From an uncultured Pirellulaceae bacterium (GTDB lineage: Bacteria > Planctomycetota > Planctomycetia > Pirellulales > Pirellulaceae), in assembly GCA_964398215.1 (NCBI GenBank), contig CAYNNP010000139.1:1-13949 (forward strand): 13,949 nucleotides of DNA, given 5' to 3'. Below the pieces are notes generated by a model, which saw nothing but the letters and a program-made list of their open reading frames with translations, was not told the DNA's origin and searched no databases. Below are positions 124 through 13,949 of the stretch, piece after piece. Position numbers and translations under genes: made by a program. Each line of letters opens with the position of its first letter. The first letter of the stretch is position 1.

Positions 124-893
124 TGACTGGCGGTTGCCCGATATTCTTCGTGTACTCGGCGCATGACGATAAAGTCGCTAGTGTTCATGTGCTTATATTC
201 CATTTTTGCCAAGCGGTGCGGAGCTTCGTCGTGGCCGAGCCCAAAATTGACTCGCTAGTTGATCCAACCTTTTTGTTTCGATTCCAGATTCCGTTGGCCA
301 AAGTAGCCTTGGGCTGGTCGCAAAAGGGCTTGCAGTTACCCGACAAATGCCAACTGCCATCGTTTGGCGAAATGGCGAATCGGCCGGTCTTTGCCGATGT
401 GCGAATGGGCTGGAACAAAACCGGTATCGGTATTCAAGTTTTAGTCAAAGGCAAGCGTCAGATGCCGTGGTGCCGTGACACGCGGCTGGACGAAAGTGAC
501 GGCATTCACGTATGGATTGATACACGCTGCAGTCCTGGTATTCATCGTGCCACGCAATTTTGCCATCGATTTTTGTGGATGCCCGTTGGCGGCGGGCCGC
601 GACGTGATCGGCCGATCGCGACACTCGTCCCCATCAACCGAGCTCGCCAAAACCCAAAGTCGATTCCCAGTGATGGGTTGAAGATTGCGGCAGCTCCCAA
701 ACACGATGGATATGCACTGTCAGGCTTCATTTCGGCGAGCGCATTGACTGGCTTTTCACCCGAAGACCAGCCCCGAATTGGGTTGTATTACGCTGTCGTG
801 GACCGGGAACTTGGTTGGCAAACGTTCTCGCTGGGTCCTGACTATCCAGTTGTAGAAGACCCCAGTTTGTGGGGTGAGGCTGTGCTCAGTTAA
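123..893 (+). CDS. Hypothetical protein (256 codons from a GTG start; the first in-frame ATG is at 372)
   Basis: It is the longest ORF in the region. Only short antisense ORFs compete on the other strand. The amino-acid composition looks protein-like (for example GLYYAVVDRELGWQTFSLGPDYPVVEDPSLW). There is no recognisable family motif and no SD. The GTG start overlaps the outer stem of the hairpin cluster, so the true start may lie downstream. An in-frame stop at 33-35 excludes extension beyond the window. Confidence 0.45.
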   Translation: MTGGCPIFFVYSAHDDKVASVHVLIFHFCQAVRSFVVAEPKIDSLVDPTFLFRFQIPLAKVALGWSQKGLQLPDKCQLPSFGEMANRPVFADVRMGWNKTGIGIQVLVKGKRQMPWCRDTRLDESDGIHVWIDTRCSPGIHRATQFCHRFLWMPVGGGPRRDRPIATLVPINRARQNPKSIPSDGLKIAAAPKHDGYALSGFISASALTGFSPEDQPRIGLYYAVVDRELGWQTFSLGPDYPVVEDPSLWGEAVLS

Positions 894-1091: not shown

Positions 1092-2972
1092 ATGACCACC
1101 ACAACAAAGACGTCAAAGGACGTCCAATCTGTTTCCGGAATCACCGTTCGACTCGCTGGCGACTCCGGCGACGGGATGCAACTACTGGGAACACAGCTGA
1201 CAAACACCAGTGCACTTGCTGGCAATGATGTCGCAACATTCCCTGACTTCCCGGCCGAAATCCGTGCTCCCAAAGGAACTCGTGCTGGCGTCTCTGGCTT
1301 TCAAGTTCAATTTGCTAGCCAAGAAATCTTTACGCCCGGCGATACGCTGGACGCGCTCGTGGTGATGAACCCAGCTGCGATGGTCACCAATATCAGTGAC
1401 CTGCGGAAGGGCGGGATTTTGATCGCGAACGAAGACGGCTTCAATGACAAGGAATTCAAGTTGGCGAAGGTCGACGCGAATCCTTTAGAGGCCGACGTGA
1501 TCAACCAAGAGTACCGGGTCATCAAAGTCCAGATGACCAAGTTGACTCGTGAAGCTGTCAAAGAACACGGGCTTAGCACGAAAGTCGCTGACCGCTGCAA
1601 GAACTTTTTTGCAATGGGACTTGTCTACTGGTTGTTTGGCCGATCCCTGGACCCAACGCTCCGGTTCATCGAGAACAAATTTGGCAAGAAGCCAGAGCTT
1701 GCTGCGGCCAACATATCGGCGCTTCGCGCAGGCTGGGCGTATGGTGAAACCACCGAGGCTTTCGGTGAAAGTTATCAAGTTGACGCTGCTACGCTTGAGC
1801 CAGGCAACTACCGCAACATCATGGGCAACCAAGCATTGGCGTGGGGTTTGATCACTGCTTCAAAGCTTAGCGGCAAGGATCTGTTTTACGGCACTTACCC
1901 GATCACGCCTGCCAGCGACATTCTGCACGAACTGACGAAGTACAAGAATTTTTCTGTACGAACATTTCAAGCGGAAGACGAGATCGCTGCCGTGTGTTCT
2001 GCCATCGGCGCAGCGTTTGGCGGTGCAATGGGCGTGACCGCAAGTAGCGGTCCTGGCATCGCACTCAAAGGCGAAGCGATGGGACTGGGGATGATTTTAG
2101 AATTGCCCATGATCATCGTGAACGTACAGCGCGGGGGTCCTAGCACTGGGCTGCCAACCAAGACCGAGCAGAGTGATTTGCTGCAAAGTATGTTTGGCCG
2201 GAACGGTGAATCGCCACTTCCGATCTTGGCGCCGCGATCACCCGGCGATTGCTTTGACATGGCGATCGAAGCTTGGCGATTGGCGACCGAATGCATGGTT
2301 CCTGTGATCTTGCTGTCCGATGGATACATTGCAAACGGTAGCGAACCGTGGAAGATCCCAGAGATGAGTTCGTTGCCAGCGATTCCGGTTTCGCACCCAG
2401 AGGGAGCGGACCCGTCGGAGCCGTTCATGCCTTACGCGCGTGACGAAAACCTGGCCAGACCGTGGGCAATTCCCGGCACCGAAGGCTTAATGCACCGCGT
2501 TGGTGGGCTAGAGAAAGAAGACTTGACTGGTAATGTCAGCTACGACCCTGACAACCACCAAAAGATGACGGATCTGCGGCAAGCGAAAATTGCAAAGATC
2601 GCAGAACGTATTCCCGAGCAGGATGTGTTTGGCGAAACATCGGGAGACGTCTTGGTCGTTTCATGGGGCGGAACTTATGGTGCATGTCATACCGCTGTCC
2701 AGCGTTGCCAAGAAAACGGCAAGAGTGTCAGCCATGCTCATATCCGCTATATGAATCCGCTGCCGTCCAATATTGGCGAACTGCTGAAATCGTTCCGCAC
2801 AGTTTTGGTTCCCGAACTGAACATGGGACAACTTCGCTTGCTACTACGATCAGAGTTCTTGGTCGACTGCGTTGGCATCAACAAAGTCAAAGGCAAGCCG
2901 TTCACAGTTGGCGAACTGGTCGACGGCATCGAAGAACATCTTAGTGTTATCACTACCAAGGCGGCGGGATAA
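1092..2972 (+). CDS. korA: 2-oxoacid (2-oxoglutarate/pyruvate-type):ferredoxin oxidoreductase, alpha subunit with fused N-terminal gamma domain (626 aa)
   Basis: The N-terminal gamma-domain signature ITVRLAGDSGDGMQLLG is present, followed by an alpha domain (GTYPITPASDILHEL, GPGIALKGE). Its length is typical of the two-subunit KorA type. It sits immediately upstream of a TPP-binding beta subunit. The substrate (2-oxoglutarate versus another 2-oxoacid) cannot be fixed from sequence alone. Confidence 0.9.
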   Translation: MTTTTKTSKDVQSVSGITVRLAGDSGDGMQLLGTQLTNTSALAGNDVATFPDFPAEIRAPKGTRAGVSGFQVQFASQEIFTPGDTLDALVVMNPAAMVTNISDLRKGGILIANEDGFNDKEFKLAKVDANPLEADVINQEYRVIKVQMTKLTREAVKEHGLSTKVADRCKNFFAMGLVYWLFGRSLDPTLRFIENKFGKKPELAAANISALRAGWAYGETTEAFGESYQVDAATLEPGNYRNIMGNQALAWGLITASKLSGKDLFYGTYPITPASDILHELTKYKNFSVRTFQAEDEIAAVCSAIGAAFGGAMGVTASSGPGIALKGEAMGLGMILELPMIIVNVQRGGPSTGLPTKTEQSDLLQSMFGRNGESPLPILAPRSPGDCFDMAIEAWRLATECMVPVILLSDGYIANGSEPWKIPEMSSLPAIPVSHPEGADPSEPFMPYARDENLARPWAIPGTEGLMHRVGGLEKEDLTGNVSYDPDNHQKMTDLRQAKIAKIAERIPEQDVFGETSGDVLVVSWGGTYGACHTAVQRCQENGKSVSHAHIRYMNPLPSNIGELLKSFRTVLVPELNMGQLRLLLRSEFLVDCVGINKVKGKPFTVGELVDGIEEHLSVITTKAAG

Positions 2973-3036
2973 ACCGCACGCATCATTTAGTATCCCTTTT
3001 CAAACGAACAACTGACTCTCAATTCATTCCGACGCC

Positions 3037-4044
3037 ATGTCTCTTCCTGTATTAAAAGCATCTGATTTTGCATCCGACCAAGACATCCGATGGTGTCCTG
3101 GATGCGGCGACTATTCGATTTTGGCACAGATGAAAAAGGTCTTGCCTGACCTGGGTGTGCCTCGCGAAAAGATCGTATTTATCAGCGGCATTGGATGCAG
3201 CAGTCGTTTTCCGTACTACATGAATACGTACGGCATGCACAGCATTCACGGACGCGCGCCGACTTTTGCAACTGGATTGAAATCAACGCGCCCCGATTTG
3301 ATGGTCTGGGTAATCACAGGTGACGGCGACGCTCTTTCGATCGGCGGGAATCACTTCATTCATGCTTTGCGTCGTAACGTCGACGTGAATATCGTCTTGT
3401 TCAATAACCGCATCTATGGATTGACCAAGGGACAATACAGCCCGACCAGCGAGCATGGAAAAGTAACCAAGAGTACGCCGATGGGATCGATTGACCATCC
3501 GCTCAGTCCGCTCTCGGTTGCTTTGGCCGCAGAAGCAACATTTGTTGCCCGTAGTATGGATGCACACGTCAAGCACTTAGGCGAAACGCTCAAGCGAGCG
3601 AGCGCACACAAAGGCACTTCGCTGGTCGAGGTTTACCAAAACTGCAATGTGTTCAATGACGGTGCGATGGCTTACGCCCAAGAAAAGAAGCAGCGTCCAG
3701 AAAACGTTGTAGAACTCCAGCATGGCAAACCGCTCGTGTTTGCTGGCGGCGAGAAGGGTGTTCGGTTGGTCGGCACACGACTGGAAGTGGTCAATACTGC
3801 TGATGTACCTGCGGACGATCTGCTGATTCATGACGAAAAGGATCCGAACCCTTCGATCCAAATGATGCTAGCCCGAATGCGCTATCCAGAAATGCCAGAA
3901 CCGATCGGGGTTCTGCGAGCCGTTGAAGGCGTGCCAACTTACGACGAACAAATCAATTCGCAGGTCACATCTGCGGTCGCCAATCAAGGCGAAGGTGATT
4001 TGAGCAAGTTGTTCAACGCCGGCGAGACCTGGACCGTTTCCTAA
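3037..4044 (+). CDS. korB: 2-oxoacid:ferredoxin oxidoreductase, beta subunit (TPP-binding, 335 aa)
   Basis: The N-terminal cysteine motif RWCPGCGDYSI and GIGCSSRFPYY are present. The TPP-binding signature is GDGDALSIGGNHFIHALRRNVDVNIVLFNNRIYGLTKGQ. It lies 64 bp downstream of korA on the same strand. Confidence 0.9.
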   Translation: MSLPVLKASDFASDQDIRWCPGCGDYSILAQMKKVLPDLGVPREKIVFISGIGCSSRFPYYMNTYGMHSIHGRAPTFATGLKSTRPDLMVWVITGDGDALSIGGNHFIHALRRNVDVNIVLFNNRIYGLTKGQYSPTSEHGKVTKSTPMGSIDHPLSPLSVALAAEATFVARSMDAHVKHLGETLKRASAHKGTSLVEVYQNCNVFNDGAMAYAQEKKQRPENVVELQHGKPLVFAGGEKGVRLVGTRLEVVNTADVPADDLLIHDEKDPNPSIQMMLARMRYPEMPEPIGVLRAVEGVPTYDEQINSQVTSAVANQGEGDLSKLFNAGETWTVS

Positions 4045-4111: not shown

Positions 4112-7100
4112 CTACTGCTTGTTGGGGCCGCCTGAGTTGTCGAAGGTTGTTTCGATCTCGCGGTAGTTTGCCAGCATGTCGTCTAGCTGTCCTCGCAGTT
4201 TGTCGAGGTCGCGGCCGTTGTCCAGCGATTCGGCCAGGATCGGACGGAGCCATTCTTGCATCAAGTGAAATTGGCCTTTGATCAAGTCTGCCAAGACTCG
4301 AGGCACCTTGTGCTGCACGAACACCTTTTGGTCTGGCGGTGTCAGAGCCTGTTGCTCGCTGATTTTTTGCAGTTGTTGGCCGGTCTTTCCTAGCGTCTGT
4401 GACAACTGTTCGCCTGAGCTAACCAGACTTTGCCGGAGCGAGTCTAGCCGAGCATCCATTCGTTCTTCGGCGCCGTCGTCGCGGGTTGCGATCGCTTTGC
4501 TGATCACGCTGCGAATCGATTCCAATCCGTCTCGCATCGCTCCCAGTTGACGCATCAGCTGAGCGGCTTGGTCTTCGTTGTCCATGCCAGCCATGCGAAC
4601 GCTTTCGACATACGCATACTTGATCGAATCCCAACGCTCTTGTTCTTCTGGCGTCAGGATGCCCATCAGTTCCTTGAACTTCAAAACGTTGGCTTCATTA
4701 TCGGTTGTCAACGTTTGAGCGTCTTGTTCGTAGCTGCCGATGATCAGCGTTTGAAGCTCGGAATCGTTCATGACACCAGCGACTTTCTCTGCCATCCGAT
4801 TCATATTCCGGTACGAACCCTGCAGCTTGAACGGCGGTTCGGTTCGGTACGCGTCGGCCTGCGCGGCACTGCGAATGTAAGCCCTGTTGACCCGAAGAAC
4901 GACATCGCGAACGCGAAGCAGTTTTCGCATCACTTCGTACATCTCGCGAACTTCGTCCATCGAAATATTGCTTTCCAGCTCAAGGCCTTCCATTGAATCT
5001 CGCTGAGCAGCCATGACGATCGCGCGAGCGTCTTCTGGCGGAGCGTTGGACAATGGTGCGAGCGTACGGTTGCTGGTCAAGCAATTTTCCAGGTAACTCA
5101 TCTCAAATGCGTCTGCCGAATCGCCAATGATCTCGCCTAAGTTGTAGACATCGGCACGGTTCGACAGCATATCGGGAATCTGAAAACGGTCGCCGCTTTC
5201 AGTGTACGGGTTGCCCGCCATGACGACGGCGACGCGGCGGCCACGCAAATCATAGGTCCGCGTTTTGCCGTTGCGGACGCCTTCGATTTTTCGCGTGGCA
5301 TCACACAGAGAGATAAACTTTTGCAGCAATTCTGGATTCGTGTGCTGAATATCATCCAAGTACAGCATCACATTGTCGCCCATTTCCAAGGCCAGATTCA
5401 ATCGCTCGATTTCTTCGCGAGCCGCCGCATTGGGCGCTTCGGACGGATCCAGCGAAGTCACCGCGTGTCCGATCGCAGGACCATTGATCTTCATGAATAC
5501 CACGCCCAAACGATTGGCGATGTACTCCATCAGAGTCGTTTTACCGTACCCTGGCGGCGAGATTAGCAGCAGCAAACCCATTCGGTCAGTACGCTTGTCT
5601 TCGCCCGCTGACCCCATTTGTTTGGCAAGGTTGTCACCAATCATTGGCAAGTAAACTTCGTCCAGCAAACGGTTCCGCACAAAGCTAGTCAGCACCCGCG
5701 GTTTGAATTCGTCCAACCGCATGTCTTCGCGTGACGTTTCGACGACATGCGCCTTTGTCTCTTGAAGCAAGCGATATCGGGGCACGACGTCTTCGCTGAA
5801 ATGCTGAACTCGGCGGATCAAATCGTGATAGTGCAATGCATACTTGCCGCTTTGGATCACGCCGTGGCTCCCAGCCATGCCTGTTAATTCGGCAGCGACA
5901 GCGGCATCGGCAACGCGGAACGAAGTGGTCGCTCCGGCTTGGATGATCATCGCTAATTCGTCGCGGTAGGCTGCAATCGGGTCGACATCACTGCCGGCTT
6001 CGTGCGTTTGGATGAAAGCATCGGCCCAGTTCCGAGCCAAAATGAAGCCACGTACAGGATCTGTGTCAGCGCTCTTGATCGCTCCGGTCAACAACTTTGA
6101 TCGTTCGGCATCGGGGATCGAATCAATAAATTTGCCAAACAACTTTTTCGCGCGACCACTGATAACTGTCTTTTTGGGTGTCGCAATCAGCTGATCGAAC
6201 AGGTACTCCGACAGCCGTGCTGTATTCACGTCGCGCCCAAAGACGTTTTGCAGATCGTCGATATGTTGTTCCACCAATTCCGTCAGTCGGCTGCGGAATT
6301 CGACAGCGGGCTTGGCATGCGGATAGGCTTTGGCAAGTTTCGCAAACCCACCGATCCAATCCGTCATCGCTTTGCGTTCTTTGGCTGGCAAAAGACGATT
6401 GAACCACAACAATGCGGCCGCTCGCAATGTTGGTGTGTATTTCAAGAGCCCAATGGATTCGTCGATTTCGACCAGGCCCTGCAAAATCAGAGCCGCGTCA
6501 TGATCGTGGACGCCTTTCGCGTACCCTTCCTCGAACCGGCCACCGATTTTTGTTTGTACATAGCTCGCGTCGATCGCGGTTGGGTCCAGCTTTTCGCCAT
6601 CGGAGCGGGCGGCGTTGAAAAGATCGACGGCCAAGTACTCCGCGCGATAAACTTCGGCGTTCTCGCTAACGAGTTCCTGATTCCAGAGCTCTTTGGCATC
6701 CACCAAGGCGGCTTCATGGATCGCTTCAAAGAACTGGGTGCCTGTAAGGTGCAAGCACATTTCACCGCCACGAACGACGGTCGTCAAATCCAACGGTTGT
6801 GTATTGACGGCGAATCGTTGTGTACCAAGACGGATGATATCGCCGCCATCCTCGTACAAGTCCTGGCGGTCTTTTAGTTGCCGTGTCGCGTCCTCACGAA
6901 TCGTCTTCATCCGACTCTGAAGATCTTCAACGCGCACTGCGTCGTCCAGGTCTTGCAACTGATCGATGATGTCGCGAACCTTTTCGACCATCAAGTCGCC
7001 AGCGAAATACGCGGCAATCTCGTCGGCCGACTCCATGTTCCCGACGCGTGTATTGATGCCCTTTAGGATTCGATTGGCCGCTGAAGCCAATGACTCGGCG

Positions 7101-9361
7101 CGGCGATTACGTTTCTCCACCAAGGCGACTTTACGAGACTCAAAGGCCGCGTAGACCTCTTCGCGCCGGGTGGCTAGCTGGATCACGAACTCGTCGAACT
7201 CAGCGAATCGGCCCTCCAGTTCTTCTAGTTGAACCATGACCTTGGTCAGGTATTCATCGCATCGTTCCGGAGAATCGCAAACGTCCAGGTACCCCGACGT
7301 GGTTTGTTCCAGCAGTTTTAGCTGGGAGGCAAACTCTGCTTGGCCCTCGACACTGACCAATTCGGTCACGCGTGCTTTCAATCCACTTCGGACACGATTC
7401 AATGAAGCGAAGACGTCACCGATCGCGTCGATGATTTCGGTTCGCTTGGTTGCGTCGTCAATCCGCAAGTTACTGACGGTCTCAGTCAGTAACTCCAGTT
7501 GCGATCCAGCGGTGTCAATTTCTTCTTCCAAGACCTTTGCCTCGGCAACGGTCGCGACCGTATCGATTTTGCCGCTCGCTTCAGCCACGCGTTCGGAATA
7601 CGGATCCAGGGCTCCTGGAGTCAGCAAGAAATCAACGCATCGCCGACTCAATCGTTCACTGCGCTCGGCGGTTTCTTTCTCCAAAGATTCCACGATCGCA
7701 AGATCGACGTAACGCAGTTCCTTTAAACCCAGCGCATGGCCACGCTGCTCTCGCAGTTGGGCCAACGAGCCAACGAAATCATCGATCGACTCGAATCGGC
7801 TGCGTTCAATGCTCTTGATCAGTTCGGCGATCGCGGTTTTGACTTCACCAGTTCGTTTTTTGGTGTCACGACGAACGCGGGTCACTTTTTCGAATTCTTC
7901 GACAGCAGCGTTGGCTGCTTCGCGAATTTTCGTCAGCGGAATCGCAAGGTTCTCGGTTTCGTCTTTGTTGATCCAGAAAAAGCTGTCCAACAGATCCGAC
8001 GCCTTTTTGGACAAGTCCACGTACAGCCCGTCGTAACTATCGTCCTTGTCGATCAACTGCAGCAGTTCGCTACACTCGGCCATTCCCGCAACGATTTCTT
8101 TATTGCCGATTTTGAACAGCAGTGAATCGGTTTGATTGTCGGGATTGAAGTCCGCGCCGGTGAACGGCGTTTGCCAAATCTGAATCGCGTGATGTTTCTG
8201 CGCATCCTCTTGCGACTTGAAACACACCATTTCGCCCGCTTCAAAAAACGTTTGCCCGTGGCAGACCAGCGGTGTTTCGACCGTCTGCTTGATCACGTTG
8301 TAACGAAGCTGTGCGTACGTACCGGACTCGGGCGTATAGAAAAGGTACAAGTAGTCTTCGCCGTTGGGTGACGCGACGGTACGCTGGAAACGCATGTCGG
8401 TCAAACCGTGATCGAACCGCTTGAACTCGCCCGTCTGCAAGTAATATCCGCCTGGGAAAATCAAGCCTTGGTCGCCGGGCAACATCACGCACGATTGTTC
8501 GATCTCGTCCAGTCTCATCGCCTGCTGGATCTTGCCGTTGTAAACCAAGTATCGTGTTTTTTCTTCTTGATACGGTTTCATCTTCAGCAAAACCAGATTG
8601 CCGATGATCGCATAATGGATCTCGGCATCGTCCAGCGTTTGATCAGGATGGTCGACCGGTTCGGCGTAAATACCTTCGCCGGAATCCGTGTTGTTTTCGA
8701 CCTTCACGGTCAAATCGCCGCCAACCGTTTCGACAAACACGATGTCATCGATCGAAATGTGAGGGTGCGAACCGTAGCGATGTTGATCGCGAGTCGTTCG
8801 TGTCCAGCGAAACTCGTGCTGAGCCGGTTCTTTGACTTCGTGATCGCTGCGATTGTCGATGTATTCGATTTCAGTCGGTGTCACGCGCCATTTAAACGTC
8901 TTGATGTCGTTGGCGGTCTTTCCGACTTGGAAAACCATGTGCAGCATTGGTCCGCTGCGATAGAACCGACTGAACGTCGTGCCTTTATAAAAGCGATACA
9001 GTTCGTCAAAGTCGCTGCTGAATTTGTCGTCACCGATCAATTCAAGCGTGTCGGTGTGGAATTGGTTGTCGGCGAATCGATAAGCCGAAAACACATCAGC
9101 GACGTTGATGTCGGTTTTCAAGCCGAATTGAACGTTGTACCCGAACAGAAATCGGTCGCCAATGGAAACCAAGTCGCGCGGGATGCAATTGTGCTCAGTC
9201 GAAACGCGTTCGGTGGAAAGCAGTTTGGTTTCGATATTGCCGAAAACATCGGCGCGAGCCAAGTTTAACTTGGCAAGCCGTTCACGCAAATCATTCGACG
9301 CATCGCGAAGACGATTGCGCAGTACTTCGTAGGTGCCGGCAGCAAGTTGTGATTCGGACAT
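4112..9361 (-). CDS. Giant (1749 aa) soluble protein with a single AAA+ ATPase core (MoxR/RuvB-like motifs) between large N- and C-terminal non-ATPase regions
   Basis: This is a continuous 5.25-kb ORF. Walker A is LLLLISPPGYGKTTL (K at about residue 1274, nt about 5534-5560). Walker B is NVMLYLDDIQHTNPELLQKFISLCDA (D1336/D1337, nt 5351-5356). Sensor-1 is RRVAVVMAGNP. The arginine-finger region is SGDRFQIPDMLSNRADVY. Residues about 60-440 look beta-rich. Residues about 450-1250 are long and helical. The C-terminal 250 residues look Q/L-rich and coiled-coil-like. No hydrophobic transmembrane segment is seen. No protease-like or nuclease-like motif is recognised. Confidence 0.85.
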   Translation of the reverse strand: MSESQLAAGTYEVLRNRLRDASNDLRERLAKLNLARADVFGNIETKLLSTERVSTEHNCIPRDLVSIGDRFLFGYNVQFGLKTDINVADVFSAYRFADNQFHTDTLELIGDDKFSSDFDELYRFYKGTTFSRFYRSGPMLHMVFQVGKTANDIKTFKWRVTPTEIEYIDNRSDHEVKEPAQHEFRWTRTTRDQHRYGSHPHISIDDIVFVETVGGDLTVKVENNTDSGEGIYAEPVDHPDQTLDDAEIHYAIIGNLVLLKMKPYQEEKTRYLVYNGKIQQAMRLDEIEQSCVMLPGDQGLIFPGGYYLQTGEFKRFDHGLTDMRFQRTVASPNGEDYLYLFYTPESGTYAQLRYNVIKQTVETPLVCHGQTFFEAGEMVCFKSQEDAQKHHAIQIWQTPFTGADFNPDNQTDSLLFKIGNKEIVAGMAECSELLQLIDKDDSYDGLYVDLSKKASDLLDSFFWINKDETENLAIPLTKIREAANAAVEEFEKVTRVRRDTKKRTGEVKTAIAELIKSIERSRFESIDDFVGSLAQLREQRGHALGLKELRYVDLAIVESLEKETAERSERLSRRCVDFLLTPGALDPYSERVAEASGKIDTVATVAEAKVLEEEIDTAGSQLELLTETVSNLRIDDATKRTEIIDAIGDVFASLNRVRSGLKARVTELVSVEGQAEFASQLKLLEQTTSGYLDVCDSPERCDEYLTKVMVQLEELEGRFAEFDEFVIQLATRREEVYAAFESRKVALVEKRNRRAESLASAANRILKGINTRVGNMESADEIAAYFAGDLMVEKVRDIIDQLQDLDDAVRVEDLQSRMKTIREDATRQLKDRQDLYEDGGDIIRLGTQRFAVNTQPLDLTTVVRGGEMCLHLTGTQFFEAIHEAALVDAKELWNQELVSENAEVYRAEYLAVDLFNAARSDGEKLDPTAIDASYVQTKIGGRFEEGYAKGVHDHDAALILQGLVEIDESIGLLKYTPTLRAAALLWFNRLLPAKERKAMTDWIGGFAKLAKAYPHAKPAVEFRSRLTELVEQHIDDLQNVFGRDVNTARLSEYLFDQLIATPKKTVISGRAKKLFGKFIDSIPDAERSKLLTGAIKSADTDPVRGFILARNWADAFIQTHEAGSDVDPIAAYRDELAMIIQAGATTSFRVADAAVAAELTGMAGSHGVIQSGKYALHYHDLIRRVQHFSEDVVPRYRLLQETKAHVVETSREDMRLDEFKPRVLTSFVRNRLLDEVYLPMIGDNLAKQMGSAGEDKRTDRMGLLLLISPPGYGKTTLMEYIANRLGVVFMKINGPAIGHAVTSLDPSEAPNAAAREEIERLNLALEMGDNVMLYLDDIQHTNPELLQKFISLCDATRKIEGVRNGKTRTYDLRGRRVAVVMAGNPYTESGDRFQIPDMLSNRADVYNLGEIIGDSADAFEMSYLENCLTSNRTLAPLSNAPPEDARAIVMAAQRDSMEGLELESNISMDEVREMYEVMRKLLRVRDVVLRVNRAYIRSAAQADAYRTEPPFKLQGSYRNMNRMAEKVAGVMNDSELQTLIIGSYEQDAQTLTTDNEANVLKFKELMGILTPEEQERWDSIKYAYVESVRMAGMDNEDQAAQLMRQLGAMRDGLESIRSVISKAIATRDDGAEERMDARLDSLRQSLVSSGEQLSQTLGKTGQQLQKISEQQALTPPDQKVFVQHKVPRVLADLIKGQFHLMQEWLRPILAESLDNGRDLDKLRGQLDDMLANYREIETTFDNSGGPNKQ

Positions 9362-9586
9362 GATGTTTTATTGTCGTCGCTTGTCTGGCGTGCGAACGCT
9401 AGGTGTTTGGTTACATGAATGGGCAAGGCATCGGTCGCGTCTTGTGCAAATCGACCGGTCGTGTGCCGGTCAACGATGACAGGCGCGGTGCACTTGCCAT
9501 GCGTTTGCCAATCAAAACAGCATCCCAGGTCTCTCTCCCGAGGCAAGCCCGAGTAGAGAGGATTTTGGATGCGTGCGTGCGAGCCG

Positions 9587-11692
9587 TTAGGCCTTGCCGG
9601 CTTTTGGCGATCCATTGCTGGCGACCTTGTTGCTGGTCAGCAGACGGCCAGCCTTTTGATCCGCAACCTTGGCACTGCCAGCTGCACCTAGCAAGCTAGT
9701 TAGCTGGGTGCGAACGTCGTCGGTCGTGGCCAGACCCATCATTTTGGCAATCAAAGCGGCGATCGAAAGATCTTTCACGCCGTCAGTGTCCAAATTGAAG
9801 TGGTCGAGCATGCCGCTAAGCTGATCGCTAAAGTACTCCGCATTCCCATCGAAGAACGTGTCCTTGATGTCGGTTGCCACACGGCTGTTGTAGACGAATC
9901 GGTCGATCGCCTTGCCGCCTTTGACAGCCGAAGTAATCTGGTCGAAGAATTCGCCATCGCCACCGACAATGTCGATACGCGCTGCTTTGAGTGCTTCGCC
10001 AACCACGCCAGCTTGACTCTCCGCGATTCCACGCTGAGCATCGATTGCAGCGATCTCGACATCCTTTTCTTTGGTAAGCGTCAACTTGAACTCTTCGTGC
10101 TCTTTGCCCACGCTGTCCAGCAGCTTCATCGCTTCGGCCTTTTGCGTGATGCCATCGGCTTCGGCGCGGTACTTCTCCAAGTCCACGTTGGCTTCGGCCA
10201 AACCTTGCTTTTCGACCGCAGTCGCTTTCGCCTCGATACCCTTTGCTTCGGCAACAGCCTTTTTCTCAAAGACCACAGCTTCCGCACTGCCCTCTTTCTC
10301 TAGACTGACAGCTTTCGCTTCCTGGACCGTCGCTTCGGCTAGGCCAGCAGCAGCTTTGGTAGCGGCTTCGCCTTCGGCCAACATCTTCTTTGCAGAAGCG
10401 TCTTTTTCGGCCGCGTCGCGTTTCGCCTCGGCTTCGATACGAACCTTTTCCGCCAACATCTCGCTAGCATCACGTTCGGCCTGAGCCAATTTGGTTTGGC
10501 GAATCAGCTCTTCTTCGGCCTTCATTTCTGCAGCCGTAACCTGAACCTTCTTCAGACGCTCGGCCTGCGCGACTTCTTCGGTATCCTTGATCCGCTCCTT
10601 TTCTTCGACCACGGCACGTTCAACAGCGACCCGTTCGCGAATCACTTCTTGGATATTCCGCTTTTCGGTTTCGATTGCCTTTTCTTTTTCGACTTCTGCA
10701 ACGCCAACCAGTCGCATTCGTTCGGTCGCTTCCAATTCGCGATCACGATTCACACGCTCCAGTTCAACCGCGTCTGTCTTTTCTTTGCTACGCTGAGCAA
10801 CCAAGACCTGTCGCATTTTGTTTTCTTCCGCGACGCCCAGTTCTTCTTCGGTAGCGATTCGAGCTCGCTCCGATTCCAGACGTTGCTCTTCTTCGACCTT
10901 TTTAGCGGAAGCCTGCTCGCGAGCCGAAACCTCAGCAATTTCACGCTTCTGCTTCTCGACCGCTTCAACCCGCTGACGTTCCAGAGAAAGAATCGTTTCT
11001 TCCGCCTCGACATCCTGCTTCTTCAGCGTCTTTTCTTTGTCACGTGTGAATTGGTTTTCCTTGACCTTTTCGTTCGACGTCAATTCCGTGATCTTCTTGA
11101 TGCCTTCTGCGTCCAAGATATTGGTTGGGCTAAGCAATTCGATCGGAGTTTGTTCCAAGTAATCGATCGCCGCGTCATCAAGACAGTAACCGTTTAGATC
11201 GGTACCGATGACTTTCAGAATTTCGTCTTTGAACTTATCGCGTTGGTCATACAGTTCTACAAAGTCAAATTGCTTGCCCACCGTCTTGAGTGCCTCAGAG
11301 AACTTGGCGTCGAACAATTCACGCAACGTCTCCAGTTCGCTACAACGCCGTGCACCGATCGACTGGGCGACCTCTTTCATTTCTTCTTCCTTGTTATTCA
11401 CACGGATGAAGAATGCCACTTTGATGTCAGCTCGAATATTGTCTTTACAAATCAAACCCTCACTACCCTGTCGGCTGATTTCAAAGCTCTTGAGTGTCAG
11501 GTCCATGTGTTCGACGCGGTTGATCACTGGATAGACCAGCATGCCGCCAGCGGTTTGGACAGCCATTCCGCCCATTCCGGTTTTGACGATTGCCTTGTCA
11601 GGCCCAACCACGATGTAACACCGCCGCACGACGGTAACGATCACGACCACCAATACGATGAAGGCGACGATAACACCAATTGCTAATTCCAT
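9587..11692 (-). CDS. SPFH/Band-7 flotillin-family protein (YqiK/FloT-like, 701 aa) with N-terminal membrane anchor and extended Ala/Glu/Lys coiled coil
   Basis: The N-terminal hydrophobic anchor is MELAIGVIVAFIVLVVVIVTVV. The SPFH core is IVVGPDKAIVKTG...EISRQGSEGLICKDNIRADIKVAFFIRV. A roughly 300-aa EA/K-rich coiled coil follows (RLESERARIATEEELGVAEENK...AEAKRDAAEKDASAKK). A flotillin-type C-terminal region is present. The ATG at 11692 lies 2 nt after the TGA of the upstream gene. A GGAGA SD sits 7 nt upstream. Confidence 0.9.
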   Translation of the reverse strand: MELAIGVIVAFIVLVVVIVTVVRRCYIVVGPDKAIVKTGMGGMAVQTAGGMLVYPVINRVEHMDLTLKSFEISRQGSEGLICKDNIRADIKVAFFIRVNNKEEEMKEVAQSIGARRCSELETLRELFDAKFSEALKTVGKQFDFVELYDQRDKFKDEILKVIGTDLNGYCLDDAAIDYLEQTPIELLSPTNILDAEGIKKITELTSNEKVKENQFTRDKEKTLKKQDVEAEETILSLERQRVEAVEKQKREIAEVSAREQASAKKVEEEQRLESERARIATEEELGVAEENKMRQVLVAQRSKEKTDAVELERVNRDRELEATERMRLVGVAEVEKEKAIETEKRNIQEVIRERVAVERAVVEEKERIKDTEEVAQAERLKKVQVTAAEMKAEEELIRQTKLAQAERDASEMLAEKVRIEAEAKRDAAEKDASAKKMLAEGEAATKAAAGLAEATVQEAKAVSLEKEGSAEAVVFEKKAVAEAKGIEAKATAVEKQGLAEANVDLEKYRAEADGITQKAEAMKLLDSVGKEHEEFKLTLTKEKDVEIAAIDAQRGIAESQAGVVGEALKAARIDIVGGDGEFFDQITSAVKGGKAIDRFVYNSRVATDIKDTFFDGNAEYFSDQLSGMLDHFNLDTDGVKDLSIAALIAKMMGLATTDDVRTQLTSLLGAAGSAKVADQKAGRLLTSNKVASNGSPKAGKA

Positions 11693-11694
11693 GT

Positions 11695-12453
11695 TCAGTT
11701 CTCCGATTTTATTTCTGTGACGGTGTAGATTTTTTTGTCAGCGTCGTAGTCAACGATTCTTGCTTCGGTTCCACGGGACAGGGAGGAACTCTTGGTGCGT
11801 ACATTCAGAAGCAACGGTGATGCTTCTGTGCGAAATTTAGCTTGCCCGGAAGTGGGGGTCGCTTCGAGGGACGAAATTTCGCAAGTACAACCAACAATTC
11901 TTCGATTGTCGTATCCTGGTTTTGGTGTAAACGCACTGACCATGGGGTTGGTAACCAGTTTTGTGATTACAACCGCCATAACCGCGTTACGTATCGAAAG
12001 CAGGATAGTTGGAAGTAGCTCGGCCGAGTACCTTTGCTTGTCAAATGAATGCCAAAGTACGTATGCCAATGCCCAAAAGGAGGCTGTGAATACGCCGCCC
12101 CAAATTGCGATCGGCACGCGGCCAAAGTTGGTCCATTTGACGGTCAAGGCGCCCAAGCTGGCCAGCAAACCCTGCCCGCTAAGTTCTAGTCCAACATCCC
12201 CATCGGATACAGCAAACTCGCCAGCATCCAAATTCGGTGTGTGAACAGAAGGATCGATATCCAAATCTAGGTCGACGTCAACATCCAGATCCAAGTCCAG
12301 ATCGACGTCTGCATCCATTCCCAAGTCAACGAATCCAAACAAAGCCACCACGGCATAGACGCACATCAAACTGAACAGCACTGACGCTGGCCAGAGGGGA
12401 CCGACGAATAGTTCAGTTTCGACTTGATTTAGAAATTCTTCCACGACTCTCAA
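11695..12453 (-). CDS. NfeD/YqiJ-like (DUF1449-type) inner-membrane protein with C-terminal OB-fold; start uncertain (TTG at 12453 per ORF track, GTG at 12444 more plausible)
   Basis: The protein has two or three hydrophobic helices (LWPASVLFSLMCVYAVVALFGFV; GLLASLGALTV...IAIWGGVFTASFWALAYVLW; LLPTILLSIRNAVMAVVITKLV). The C-terminal beta-rich tail (RIVGCTCEISSLEA...ARIVDYDADKKIYTVTEIK) is typical of the NfeD short-form OB domain. It sits directly upstream of a flotillin, which is the classic yqiJ-yqiK/nfeD-floT arrangement. AAGGAG lies immediately 5' of the TTG with only a 1-nt spacer, and 10 nt before the GTG at 12444. Confidence 0.75.
   Translation of the reverse strand: MRVVEEFLNQVETELFVGPLWPASVLFSLMCVYAVVALFGFVDLGMDADVDLDLDLDVDVDLDLDIDPSVHTPNLDAGEFAVSDGDVGLELSGQGLLASLGALTVKWTNFGRVPIAIWGGVFTASFWALAYVLWHSFDKQRYSAELLPTILLSIRNAVMAVVITKLVTNPMVSAFTPKPGYDNRRIVGCTCEISSLEATPTSGQAKFRTEASPLLLNVRTKSSSLSRGTEARIVDYDADKKIYTVTEIKSEN
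11700..11704 (-). promoter_or_regulatory. Shine-Dalgarno (GGAGA) for the flotillin gene, embedded in the 3' end of the upstream NfeD-like gene
   Basis: The minus strand reads AAAATCGGAGAACTGAACATG, with a 7-nt spacer to the ATG. Together with the 2-nt stop-start gap this indicates translational coupling. Confidence 0.5.
12253..12327 (-). repeat. Imperfect hexanucleotide repeat encoding an acidic (D-L/V) dipeptide run: DLGMDADVDLDLDLDVDVDLDLDID
   Basis: The plus strand reads atcgatatccaaatctaggtcgacgtcaacatccagatccaagtccagatcgacgtctgcatccat. This is inside the NfeD/YqiJ-like CDS, in the loop after the first membrane helix. Confidence 0.7.
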
Positions 12454-12460
12454 GCTCCTT
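12454..12460 (-). promoter_or_regulatory. Canonical AAGGAG Shine-Dalgarno preceding the NfeD/YqiJ-like gene
   Basis: The minus strand reads CTCAAGGAGCTTGAGAGTCGTG. This is one of the few strong SDs in the window. Confidence 0.5.
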
Positions 12461-12822
12461 GAGACAATTGGCCCGTACAGTAGACCTTTAGCTTACGTAT
12501 ATGGCATCAACGCCAAGCCGCTGGGGCGCTCAAGTCGATTGATTTTGGCCAAATTCCGGGTTCGTCGCCTTAGACTTGCAACCTAGCGAATGCCATTCTG
12601 AGCCACCCGACCATCGCCGCCGTCGTCCTGGGTCTCTGCGATCCAAAATCTCACCAGCCGAATCTGGCGACCAAGGCTCCGATCTCACACCTCGCGATTC
12701 GAAAGACCAGGTCATGCCTTGTGAAGCAGGAGTGCGTCTGCGCGAACTACGCTTCGCATCTAATTTGGCGGGCTTGGTGTTGCTTGGATGAACATTCGGC
12801 CACTCGGTTGTGGTCCACAGTG

Positions 12823-12846
12823 GAAATAAAAAGAAGTTTTATTTTT
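12823..12846. other. 30-bp pure A/T island forming an all-A:T hairpin (aaataaaa-agaag-ttttattt) in an otherwise GC-rich intergenic leader
   Basis: The sequence ggaaataaaaagaagttttatttttctta was read directly. It lies immediately downstream (minus sense) of the mini-ORF stop and about 370 bp upstream of the NfeD-like start. It is too AU-rich to be a classical intrinsic terminator. It could be an UP-element, a nucleoid-protein site or a weak terminator. Confidence 0.35.
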
Positions 12847-12874
12847 CTTAGTTCAGCGACTCAGCCAGCGAGCC

Positions 12875-12982
12875 TTAGCCACCAGCGCTGGCTACCAGCG
12901 CGCCAGAGATGAAGCCAACCCATACGACCACGTATACCAGAACCGGACTATCAATCGGTTTGTCTTTTTGTGCAGTTGCCAT
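12875..12982 (-). CDS. Candidate 35-aa single-helix membrane mini-protein (MATAQKDKPIDSPVLVYVVVWVGFISGALVASAGG), below the ORF-track size cutoff
   Basis: The ATG at 12982 is preceded by GGAGA (12988-12992) with a 5-nt spacer: cattGGAGAacagcATG. The stop TAA is at 12875-12877. The peptide has a polar N-terminus followed by a 20-residue hydrophobic stretch. The A/T hairpin island follows it. It lies upstream of, and on the same strand as, the NfeD-flotillin-ATPase module. Confidence 0.35.
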   Translation of the reverse strand: MATAQKDKPIDSPVLVYVVVWVGFISGALVASAGG

Positions 12983-13042
12983 GCTGTTCTCCAATGGATC
13001 AATGCGTGTTGCGCTAGTCCGTTAGCGAAGAAACAAAAGCCT

Positions 13043-13123
13043 GGGTAAGTGACGCGAATCCATCAGCCTAATCTGGCACTGACAGAGCAAGTAAATCTCT
13101 GCGTCGACTTGGCCCACTTACCC
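13043..13123. repeat. 9-bp inverted repeat gggtaagtg (13043-13051) / cacttaccc (13115-13123) separated by 63 bp, in the leader of the downstream secreted-protein gene
   Basis: Read directly from the sequence. It lies about 160 bp upstream of the ATG at 13281. Confidence 0.4.
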
Positions 13124-13280
13124 CATAAACGGATTCAATTTCAAAACCGGACAACTAATTTCCCGGGATGATTACTGCCCATTTTTCGCCGTAGAAATTC
13201 GCGCATCAACTTGTAGCTTGTGTCATCTACCAGGAAATACTGATTCCAAGTTCTGACCCCATTCAAGTCGAGAGATAACC

Positions 13281-13949
13281 ATGCGAATTCCAAAAGTAGT
13301 TGTTTTAGCCATCGCCTTGCCGCTTCTGATTCAAGCAACAAATGCACGCGGCGACGGATCCGCTCTCAAGTTGCACGTCCACCAAAAAGGCCGTTTCGAA
13401 GCGATGATGCCTTCTTCGGCGGTCGATTCAGTGGTCAACGGCAAAGAACTCGTTGACATGAAATTCATATCAGAAGCCTTGGCCGATAATGTTTCTTATC
13501 GCGTTCGCGTGCAAGTCATTTCACCTATCGACCTAGGTGACAAACTCACAAAACAAATGTCGCAGAACTACTTGGCTCAAGCTCGCAAGGCTCACACTCG
13601 GGCTTCTGGCAACCGATTGGAGAAGGACATCGAATTCAAACAGCATGGATTTGATTGCGCCGAGTTTTCCTATGCTCTCAAAAACGGAATATCGATACGT
13701 CATCGAATCATGTTCGATGGCCTGCGGCTTTACTTGGCATCTGTGGCTGGCTCTCCGCAATCGATCAAGGCAGCAGCGGCAGAGTCGTTTCTGGATTCAG
13801 TTGGCCCCAAGGGTGCTAACGCAAAGAAAGCGGCATCGCCCAGAAAAGTGTCCGTCGCACCCCAGCCCGTTCCTTCAGACATGAAGCGATCGTCCAGAAA
13901 ACCGGTCGCCGGAACCATGAAGCGATCGCCTAGAAAAGCGGCCGCCACA
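13281..13949 (+). CDS. Secreted/exported protein of unknown function, 3'-truncated by the window edge (at least 223 codons, no stop reached)
   Basis: The ATG at 13281 has a weak GAGAGA SD 6 nt upstream. A classical signal peptide is present: MRIPKVVVLAIALPLLIQATNA|RG. The frame stays open to the last base of the window. It is absent from the ORF track because no stop is reached. The C-terminal part becomes Lys/Arg/Pro/Ala-rich (KKAASPRKVSVAPQPVPSDMKRSSRKPVAGTMKRSPRKAAA). Confidence 0.6.
   Translation, partial: MRIPKVVVLAIALPLLIQATNARGDGSALKLHVHQKGRFEAMMPSSAVDSVVNGKELVDMKFISEALADNVSYRVRVQVISPIDLGDKLTKQMSQNYLAQARKAHTRASGNRLEKDIEFKQHGFDCAEFSYALKNGISIRHRIMFDGLRLYLASVAGSPQSIKAAAAESFLDSVGPKGANAKKAASPRKVSVAPQPVPSDMKRSSRKPVAGTMKRSPRKAAAT
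13881..13949 (+). repeat. Tandem 33-36-nt repeat (atgaagcgatcg[t/c]c[c/t]agaaaa...), two copies visible before the window ends, encoding MKRSSRKPVAGT / MKRSPRKAAAT
   Basis: Read directly from the sequence. The mirror-image ORF 13730..13948 on the minus strand is a by-product of the same repeat. Confidence 0.6.

Follow-up and report, generated by a model that had tools for sequence, protein, structure and literature searches.

A widely conserved gene triad for a YqiJ-like membrane protein, a flotillin and a giant AAA+ ATPase in an uncultured member of the Pirellulaceae

The stretch of DNA analysed here, called the window below, comprises 13,949 nt (positions 1 to 13,949 of contig CAYNNP010000139.1, GenBank assembly GCA_964398215.1) from an uncultured Pirellulaceae bacterium and is a metagenome contig. 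The open reading frame (ORF) list shows three co-oriented ORFs on its minus strand (Table 1): the first encodes a small membrane protein related to YqiJ, the second a flotillin and the third a giant, soluble AAA+ ATPase. The TGA of the first gene lies 2 nt before the ATG of the flotillin gene and there is a GGAG 9 nt 5' of that ATG, so tight coupling of these two genes is plausible, as the original prediction had claimed. The first ORF starts with TTG, and an independent gene call on the same contig begins 3 codons downstream. There is a spacer of 225 bp between the flotillin and ATPase genes. Its sole ORF (116 aa, 9265-9615) overlaps both flanking genes and gave no credible family match in a Pfam search, so there is no real gene between them. 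The layout is therefore as originally described, with three genes in one direction and none intervening. In the spacer and its surroundings there is no convincing promoter or terminator; counts equalled those of shuffled controls and are uninformative on co-transcription. One weak 6-bp hairpin is present in the spacer (9542-9524). The 1749-aa ATPase has a 100% identical counterpart on ENA scaffold ERZ23487587; its nearest named relatives are found in Stieleria, Rubripirellula and Rhodopirellula.

The original prediction raised the question of whether this arrangement is conserved and proposed a tabulation of the genes upstream of ATPase homologues, which we have carried out. With the ATPase as query, 72,556 plasmid records were searched by tblastn, and a further scan covered one genome per GTDB species. 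A homologue is present in at least 588 GTDB species, and 80 of these loci were analysed, from Planctomycetota, Bacteroidota, Verrucomicrobiota, Desulfobacterota, Kiritimatiellota and Clostridia. Neighbours were tabulated with hidden Markov models built from the window proteins, at loci with at least 3.5 kb of upstream DNA (n=67). There is a flotillin gene upstream of the ATPase gene on the same strand in 64 of the 67 loci (96%), and both a flotillin gene and a YqiJ-like gene in 60 of them (90%). Gene order is kept in 56-60 of the 63 loci that come from the GTDB-species scan. Among the plasmids the ATPase occurs in 13 of the 72,556 records (Hymenobacter, Streptomyces, Nonomuraea, Deinococcus, Proteus, Pseudomonas (pQBR103), Halomonas, Vibrio and Photobacterium), and all eight records examined have the genes for the small protein, the flotillin and the ATPase in this order on one strand. 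The triad spans at least nine phyla, with loci from the six groups named above and from Actinomycetota, Deinococcota and Gammaproteobacteria. At related loci there are ATGA-type overlaps between the YqiJ-like and flotillin genes, and the distance from the flotillin gene to the ATPase gene varies between -11 bp and 2.4 kb, being -11 to 35 bp in 14 loci. All-against-all clustering of the neighbouring ORFs gave no further universally conserved partner. Taken together, the data make it very probable that the three genes form a functional unit.

The association is with one kind of flotillin in particular. As a tblastn query, the SPFH domain of the window flotillin matched 315 plasmid records, and there is a clear break in identity among these matches: the 13 ATPase-linked flotillins are 42-61% identical to the query and all others 35% or less. 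The C-terminal block of the flotillin (residues 506-653) matched exactly the 13 ATPase-bearing records and no other of the whole plasmid set. By this perfect correspondence (13/13), the ATPase travels with a dedicated flotillin subfamily. Most of the block is absent from, or unalignable in, Escherichia coli YqiK, and the ATPase-linked orthologues have a mean column identity of 48% across phyla. These comparisons show that the ATPase-linked flotillins, as judged from their sequences, constitute a subfamily of their own, which is well conserved and has a private C-terminal block. The block is also a candidate docking site for the ATPase, an assignment that we make only tentatively. An apparent fusion of a flotillin C-terminus to an ATPase N-terminus, of the 'Rosetta stone' type (P0232), was discarded because the junction of about 90 residues aligns in neither frame; the apparent fusion is a read-through caused by a frameshift on a metagenomic contig of poor quality.

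The original prediction presented the triad as an undescribed system, but this is not so. A flotillin/YqiJ/AAA+ operon has been reported by Ravi et al. (2024; mSystems 9:e00847-23; PMC11237479), both with CesT/Tir and PspA genes and as 'abbreviated operons' without them. Their study is computational, gives Dokdonia donghaensis ANH61663.1 as an example and proposes a role in membrane dynamics. The triad in the window is the abbreviated form of this operon, without an adjacent PspA gene and with neither a CesT/Tir-like gene nor a LexA-like regulator nearby, whereas the Flavobacteriia loci in our set show the full published arrangement, including the divergent regulator with helix-turn-helix (HTH) and protease domains. 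There is a PspA/IM30 gene directly 5' of the YqiJ-like gene in 19 loci, nearly all from Bacteroidota, and a CesT/Tir-like gene accompanies it in 17. A LexA-family regulator (HTH and S24 peptidase) is divergently located in 17 loci (L002:1583-2368, minus strand, and 16 other Bacteroidota loci). This regulator corresponds to the 'cHTH+Protease' entry in the table of Ravi et al. and hints that induction of the operon is controlled by cleavage. In two loci from Phycisphaerae/Anaerohalosphaeraceae the PspA gene is immediately 3' of the ATPase gene (L025:6790-7479 and L079:4766-5449). On the Pseudomonas plasmid pQBR103, pspA is co-oriented with the triad in the same gene cluster and ends about 3.8 kb 5' of it. 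In that cluster (L004:1-4107) PspA/IM30 is followed by a rhomboid protease, DUF2491, DUF350, DUF1190 and glutathionylspermidine-synthase-like genes, an assemblage reminiscent of the yjf cluster of E. coli and of the PspA operons that Ravi et al. (2024) link to polyamines. The repeated linkage of a gene for a membrane-remodelling polymer (PspA) to an AAA+ ATPase gene resembles ESCRT-III and Vps4, and Ravi et al. draw the same parallel. Their paper contains no quantification, AAA+ clade assignment, flotillin subfamily analysis or experiment. The present analysis adds numbers for the conservation of the triad, the strict association between the ATPase and the flotillin block, a MoxR-like module with an invariant Asp-Asp Walker B, a hot spot for insertions, and the finding that no basis is visible for the 'DNA repair' name carried by the ATPase family; the last three are described below.

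The first two genes, and their order, are shared with E. coli yqiJ-yqiK and Bacillus subtilis yuaF-floT (yuaG), the SPFH2 group of Hinderhofer et al. (2009; PMC2636767). Neither operon has a third gene; in E. coli, yqiK is followed by small RNA and toxin loci, and no homologue of the ATPase was found in E. coli genomes. In BLASTP the window flotillin and E. coli YqiK share 31% identity over 440 residues (E 2e-45), the E/A-rich coiled coil included. With residues 1-220 as the query there is a match to Band_7/SPFH (PF01145) at residues 28-169 (E 1.1e-11; 45.6 bits against a cut-off of 23.6). The full-length 701-aa protein had no match in Pfam, NCBIfam or PDB-sequence searches, and the family profile gave none either, because the coiled-coil composition triggers the HMMER filters. 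Pfam Flot (PF15975) was not matched at E values up to 10 by the full protein or by residues 580-701, a result that the composition filter weakens. The only hydrophobic segment is N-terminal (residues 1-32). The best PDB sequence matches of the SPFH domain, both weak, are flotillin-1 (E 0.03) and QmcA, and the solved SPFH proteins are large rings, of 22 chains in flotillin-1 (9l3g) and 26 in QmcA (8z5g).

The 252-aa protein has three hydrophobic segments in a Kyte-Doolittle scan (approximately residues 17-48, 112-135 and 145-168). Pairwise BLASTP against E. coli YqiJ was negative, and single-sequence BLAST is insufficient here; the homology is seen only through the family profile. A profile of 58 orthologues aligns with YqiJ in hhalign (probability 96.7%, E 3.4e-10, 185 aligned columns, YqiJ residues 4-202 of 209). 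Pfam YqiJ_N is matched by 9 of the 58 orthologues, the window protein itself reaching only E 0.053, and none of the 58 matches NfeD (PF01957) at E ≤0.001. A β-barrel, NfeD-like structure has been described for YuaF, with nuclear magnetic resonance shifts of YqiJ that match it (Hinderhofer et al., 2009). Of the earlier designation 'NfeD/YqiJ-like', the YqiJ half is therefore upheld and the classical NfeD half is not: on profile evidence the protein is YqiJ-like, and 'NfeD' applies only in the looser YqiJ/YuaF sense of Hinderhofer et al. There is an acidic repeat loop between the first two transmembrane segments that is conserved in the family (consensus GxxDxDxxDxDxDxDxDxD in the 58 orthologues). 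That it binds cations is only a guess.

Pfam matches DUF3686 (PF12458) to residues 24-462 of the ATPase over the full 448-position model (E 1.1e-190) and DUF7902 to residues 584-666 (E 2.4e-27). In the P-loop area there are weak matches to AAA (28.1 bits against a cut-off of 21.2), AAA_5 and RuvB_N. More than 6,300 homologues remain after clustering at 90%, and 748 clusters at 50%, and the same DUF3686/DUF7902/AAA architecture is found in all 240 listed homologues (precomputed). Mean column identity across phyla is 36-47%. At one Rubripirellula locus (L007:9932-15247) two ORFs, of 776 and 887 aa, take the place of a single ATPase gene, which reflects either a frameshift or pseudogene or an assembly error. 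There is no hydrophobic segment in the window protein (best 19-residue Kyte-Doolittle mean 1.1), in agreement with its earlier description as a soluble protein without a membrane segment of its own.

When the profile of the ATPase family was compared with PDB sequences, only the P-loop matched, so there is no solved relative beyond similarity at that loop. The AlphaFold2 (AF2) models used here were made from a 42-sequence alignment and have predicted local distance difference test (pLDDT) values of 84.9 and 79.1. The β-rich N-terminal and long-helix C-terminal regions that had been proposed for the protein both appear in these models. Residues 46-397 (pLDDT mostly 85-92) model as a β-propeller, and all significant Foldseek matches of this segment in the PDB are β-propellers, albeit with low TM-scores: clathrin heavy chain (the top match), Elp1, CyRPA, acylaminoacyl peptidase and paraoxonase. 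Together with the helical legs that follow, the predicted propeller bears a loose resemblance to coat proteins of the clathrin type. The middle region (residues 836-1240) could be assigned to no family or fold. Six residues in or next to it (D831, G846, E900, G950, H952 and D955) are invariant in 56 diverse ATPase sequences. Three of them lie in a motif at residues 942-956, in which H952 and D955 are invariant in all alignments and G950 in alignment A1, and G946 and Y947 are invariant or nearly so. The motif might bind a metal, be catalytic or serve as an interface. The C-terminal tail is poorly conserved and is absent from many homologues of about 1620 aa.

Table 1. Features of the triad, with positions in the window except where locus identifiers are given. 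AF2, AlphaFold2; TM, transmembrane segment
Feature	Residues	Positions	Strand	Basis
YqiJ/YuaF-type (DUF1449, NfeD-like) membrane protein, 252 aa		11695..12453	-	ORF, orthologue profile, synteny
Acidic (D-x)n repeat loop of YqiJ-like protein, lying between TM1 and TM2 (GMDADVDLDLDLDVDVDLDLDI; also given as DADVDLDLDLDVDVDLDLDI)	45-66	12256..12321	-	sequence read
C-terminal soluble, putatively β-rich domain of YqiJ-like protein	183-248	11710..11907	-	hhalign to YqiJ ~130-202
YqiK-type flotillin, 701 aa		9587..11692	-	Band_7 match, YqiK alignment
Flotillin domains: N-terminal TM; SPFH/Band_7; E/A/K-rich coiled coil; C-terminal block	1-32; 28-169; ~200-505; 506-653		-	sequence
C-terminal block of ATPase-linked flotillins (GKEHEEFKL...IDIVGG..FFD)	506-653	9734..10177	-	tblastn, YqiK comparison
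Flotillin-ATPase spacer, 225 bp		9362..9586	-	sequence read
Giant soluble AAA+ ATPase, 1749 aa, DUF3686 family		4112..9361	-	Pfam
β-propeller-like domain of ATPase, ~28 strands, preceded by N-terminal helix (10-40)	46-397	8171..9226	-	AF2, Foldseek
Long helical region of ATPase, spectrin-repeat-like bundles/coiled coil (DUF7902, 584-666, inside)	414-835	6857..8122	-	AF2
Conserved middle region of ATPase: small β domain (842-880) and helical domain	836-1240	5642..6856	-	alignment, AF2
Motif R942..EGY..GVHDxDA956 in middle helical domain	942-956	6494-6538	-	alignment
AAA+ module (1255-1450) and conserved helical lid/C-domain (1451-1600)	1255-1600	4562..5599	-	alignment, AF2
Variable C-terminal tail of ATPase, long helices	1601-1749	4115..4561	-	AF2, pLDDT 40-69
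Example inserts between flotillin and ATPase genes at other loci		L026:8612-9698; L041:6992-8158; L042:8773-9943; L078:7838-9738		

There is one AAA+ core only, as originally stated, with a single set of Walker A (SPPGYGKTT, 1268-1276) and Walker B (LYLDD, 1333-1337) motifs. The GYGKT (K1274) and LDD (D1336, D1337) residues, the sensor-1 N1384 and R1402 are invariant in the 56 diverse sequences. Walker A, Walker B, N1384 and R1402 fall on the expected elements of the AF2 model, and R1402 is a candidate Arg finger. In the model there is a pre-sensor-1 β-hairpin (strands 1358-1363 and 1366-1371) between helix 1343-1352, which follows Walker B, and the sensor-1 strand 1377-1383. On this predicted structure the module belongs with the AAA+ proteins that carry such a hairpin (MoxR/midasin/dynein or HCLR clades). 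By model comparison it is structurally closest to MoxR types (CbbQ, NorQ) and midasin. It differs from MoxR proteins (CbbQ, NorQ, RavA) and midasin/Rea1 in that neither a VWA/MIDAS domain nor a partner with one was found, the model gives no sign of a helix-2 insert and no AAA_5/MoxR signature is above threshold, so it does not fall within the MoxR family proper. Additionally, its Walker B reads DD rather than DE, there is one AAA+ module rather than six as in midasin, and sequence similarity is marginal. The aromatic pore-loop motif is absent between β2 and α2, where the sequence is NGPAIGHAVTSLDPSEAPN. This, together with the resemblance to MoxR, suggests that the ATPase would remodel its substrate rather than thread or unfold it.

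Pfam and NCBI records name members of this family 'DNA repair ATPase' or 'ATPase involved in DNA repair', and the name is attached to thousands of proteins. Were it right, the adjacency to flotillin genes would be meaningless. A role in DNA repair would fit the weak RuvB_N match and the LexA-family regulator divergently upstream in the 17 Bacteroidota loci. However, the similarity to RuvB is confined to about 45 residues at the P-loop and scores 24.5 bits against a family cut-off of 282, no DNA-binding or nuclease domain was found by Pfam or by structure comparison, and the linkage to a membrane-protein gene is 96% conserved. We found no mention of DUF3686 or PF12458 in the papers searched, so the name is without a traceable experimental basis. 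A DNA-repair function therefore seems to us scarcely credible, and the database name has no visible support and is probably misleading.

Partnerships between an SPFH scaffold and an AAA+ ATPase at the membrane are known from HflK/C with FtsH and from prohibitin with m-AAA, and the original prediction compared the triad with these. FtsH is a membrane-anchored AAA+ protein of the classical clade, fused to a protease and held within a periplasm-facing cage. The window ATPase, in contrast, is a soluble protein of about 1750 residues without a protease, and its AAA+ module comes nearest to the MoxR types rather than to the classical FtsH-type clade. The pairing here is non-proteolytic, and the parallel stays an analogy. 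If it were followed further, with the protease left out, the triad could serve the quality control of membrane proteins: the scaffold would confine damaged membrane proteins and the ATPase would extract or refold them or hand them on, so that such clients would be its substrate. This proposal draws on the same linkage and co-occurrence as does remodelling of the scaffold itself. Pfam found no protease domain in the ATPase, however, and no protease gene is conserved in the neighbourhood. The lack of an aromatic pore loop, and best structural matches to MoxR-type remodellers instead of threading unfoldases, also argue against it. We consider quality control unlikely.

The reading towards which we lean, by a small degree, is a role in membrane remodelling, in which the ATPase would act in an ATP-driven manner on a flotillin/YqiJ scaffold during envelope stress. 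Recruitment of the ATPase to a flotillin scaffold, already put forward in the original prediction, is a reasonable inference from the conservation of the three-gene unit (64/67 loci) and from its co-occurrence with the flotillin block (13/13). In such a scheme the flotillin, anchored by its N-terminal helix, and the YqiJ-like protein with three transmembrane segments would build, at the cytoplasmic side of the membrane, a large SPFH ring or cage of the kind seen in solved SPFH complexes. The ATPase, probably a ring oligomer, would dock on this scaffold; our best guess for the contact is that the propeller or stalk binds the private C-terminal block of the flotillin. ATP would then power the assembly, opening or dismantling of the scaffold, or an action on the clients that it holds. 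The setting would be a response to envelope stress or a repair of the membrane, in many lineages also with PspA, a member of the ESCRT-III superfamily. In a more specific form, the ATPase would be the dedicated motor of a flotillin cage, a MoxR-like ring on spectrin-like stalks whose propellers grip the private block and which, with PspA, repairs or buds membrane. We regard this specific form as speculative and rather doubtful.

Several observations weigh against membrane remodelling by a flotillin-bound ATPase. Three of the 67 ATPase genes have no flotillin gene nearby and have unrelated neighbours. There is no PspA gene in the window or its contig. Every family member aligned (the 56 diverse sequences) has an Asp in Walker B where the catalytic Glu is usual, and so ATP turnover could be slow or switch-like. 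The placing of the bulk of the flotillin in the cytoplasm is assumed by analogy with YqiK and FloT. We found no experimental work on the operon in the literature. Finally, about 25 of 61 loci have a flotillin-ATPase spacer of 350-2400 bp that contains unrelated small genes on the same strand. In view of these insertions and of the 225-bp spacer in the window, the ATPase gene may be transcribed separately from a promoter of its own.

The inserted genes are diverse. By Pfam they include PDDEXK_3 and DUF559 nucleases, an IS200 transposase, an MTES_1575 restriction-endonuclease-like protein, DMP19, AbiEii, a ParE toxin, SHOCT and DUF3592. We rejected these small ORFs as a fourth component of the system, as they are heterogeneous passengers. 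It looks as if selfish or toxin-type genes have a hot spot for insertion here, within a conserved operon.

The presence of nuclease, toxin and transposase genes (PDDEXK_3, DUF559, AbiEii, ParE, IS200) at this position in several genomes also bears on a further possibility raised by the original prediction, namely that the triad acts in anti-phage defence or abortive infection, with the ATPase sensing infection and the flotillin and YqiJ-like proteins acting as the membrane effector. The patchy distribution of the triad, which includes megaplasmids, would suit such a function, as would the fact that PspA was originally defined through phage secretin stress. However, the inserted genes have the heterogeneity of passengers, and the only match in PADLOC-DB 2.0 is to IetA, at E 7e-5 over 29 residues of the P-loop. 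Conservation across phyla (48% for the flotillin, 36-47% for the ATPase) is high in a way that is unusual for defence genes, and the triad has housekeeping neighbours in the window. No ATPase homologue was found in IMG/VR or among GenBank phages, which is neutral on the matter in itself. The defence option is thus unsupported and we judge it to be very unlikely.

The neighbours in question are genes for the α and β subunits of a 2-oxoacid:ferredoxin oxidoreductase on the plus strand (1092-4044; POR/POR_N, TPP_enzyme_C). They run towards the ATPase gene, the stop codons lying 67 bp apart, and are ordinary housekeeping genes. On the other side, the ~1.5 kb 5' of the triad (12454-13949) contains no convincing ORF, the longest being 115 aa and of odd composition. 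This region may be a long leader or regulatory region, or may hold unannotated small genes. Rfam and tRNA scans found nothing in the whole window, this region included.

The function of bacterial flotillins is still debated, and we know of no enzyme that acts on a flotillin scaffold. If the ATPase does prove to be a motor of the flotillin cage, it would be the first case, in any organism, of an enzymatic partner in control of a flotillin assembly. The triad offers a concrete handle on flotillin function, since the ATPase is hardly ever separate from one flotillin subfamily and the C-terminal block of that subfamily tracks the ATPase perfectly. The module is also carried by cultivable hosts, among them Proteus mirabilis, Vibrio campbellii, Pseudomonas fluorescens SBW25 with pQBR103, Streptomyces and Flavobacteriia.

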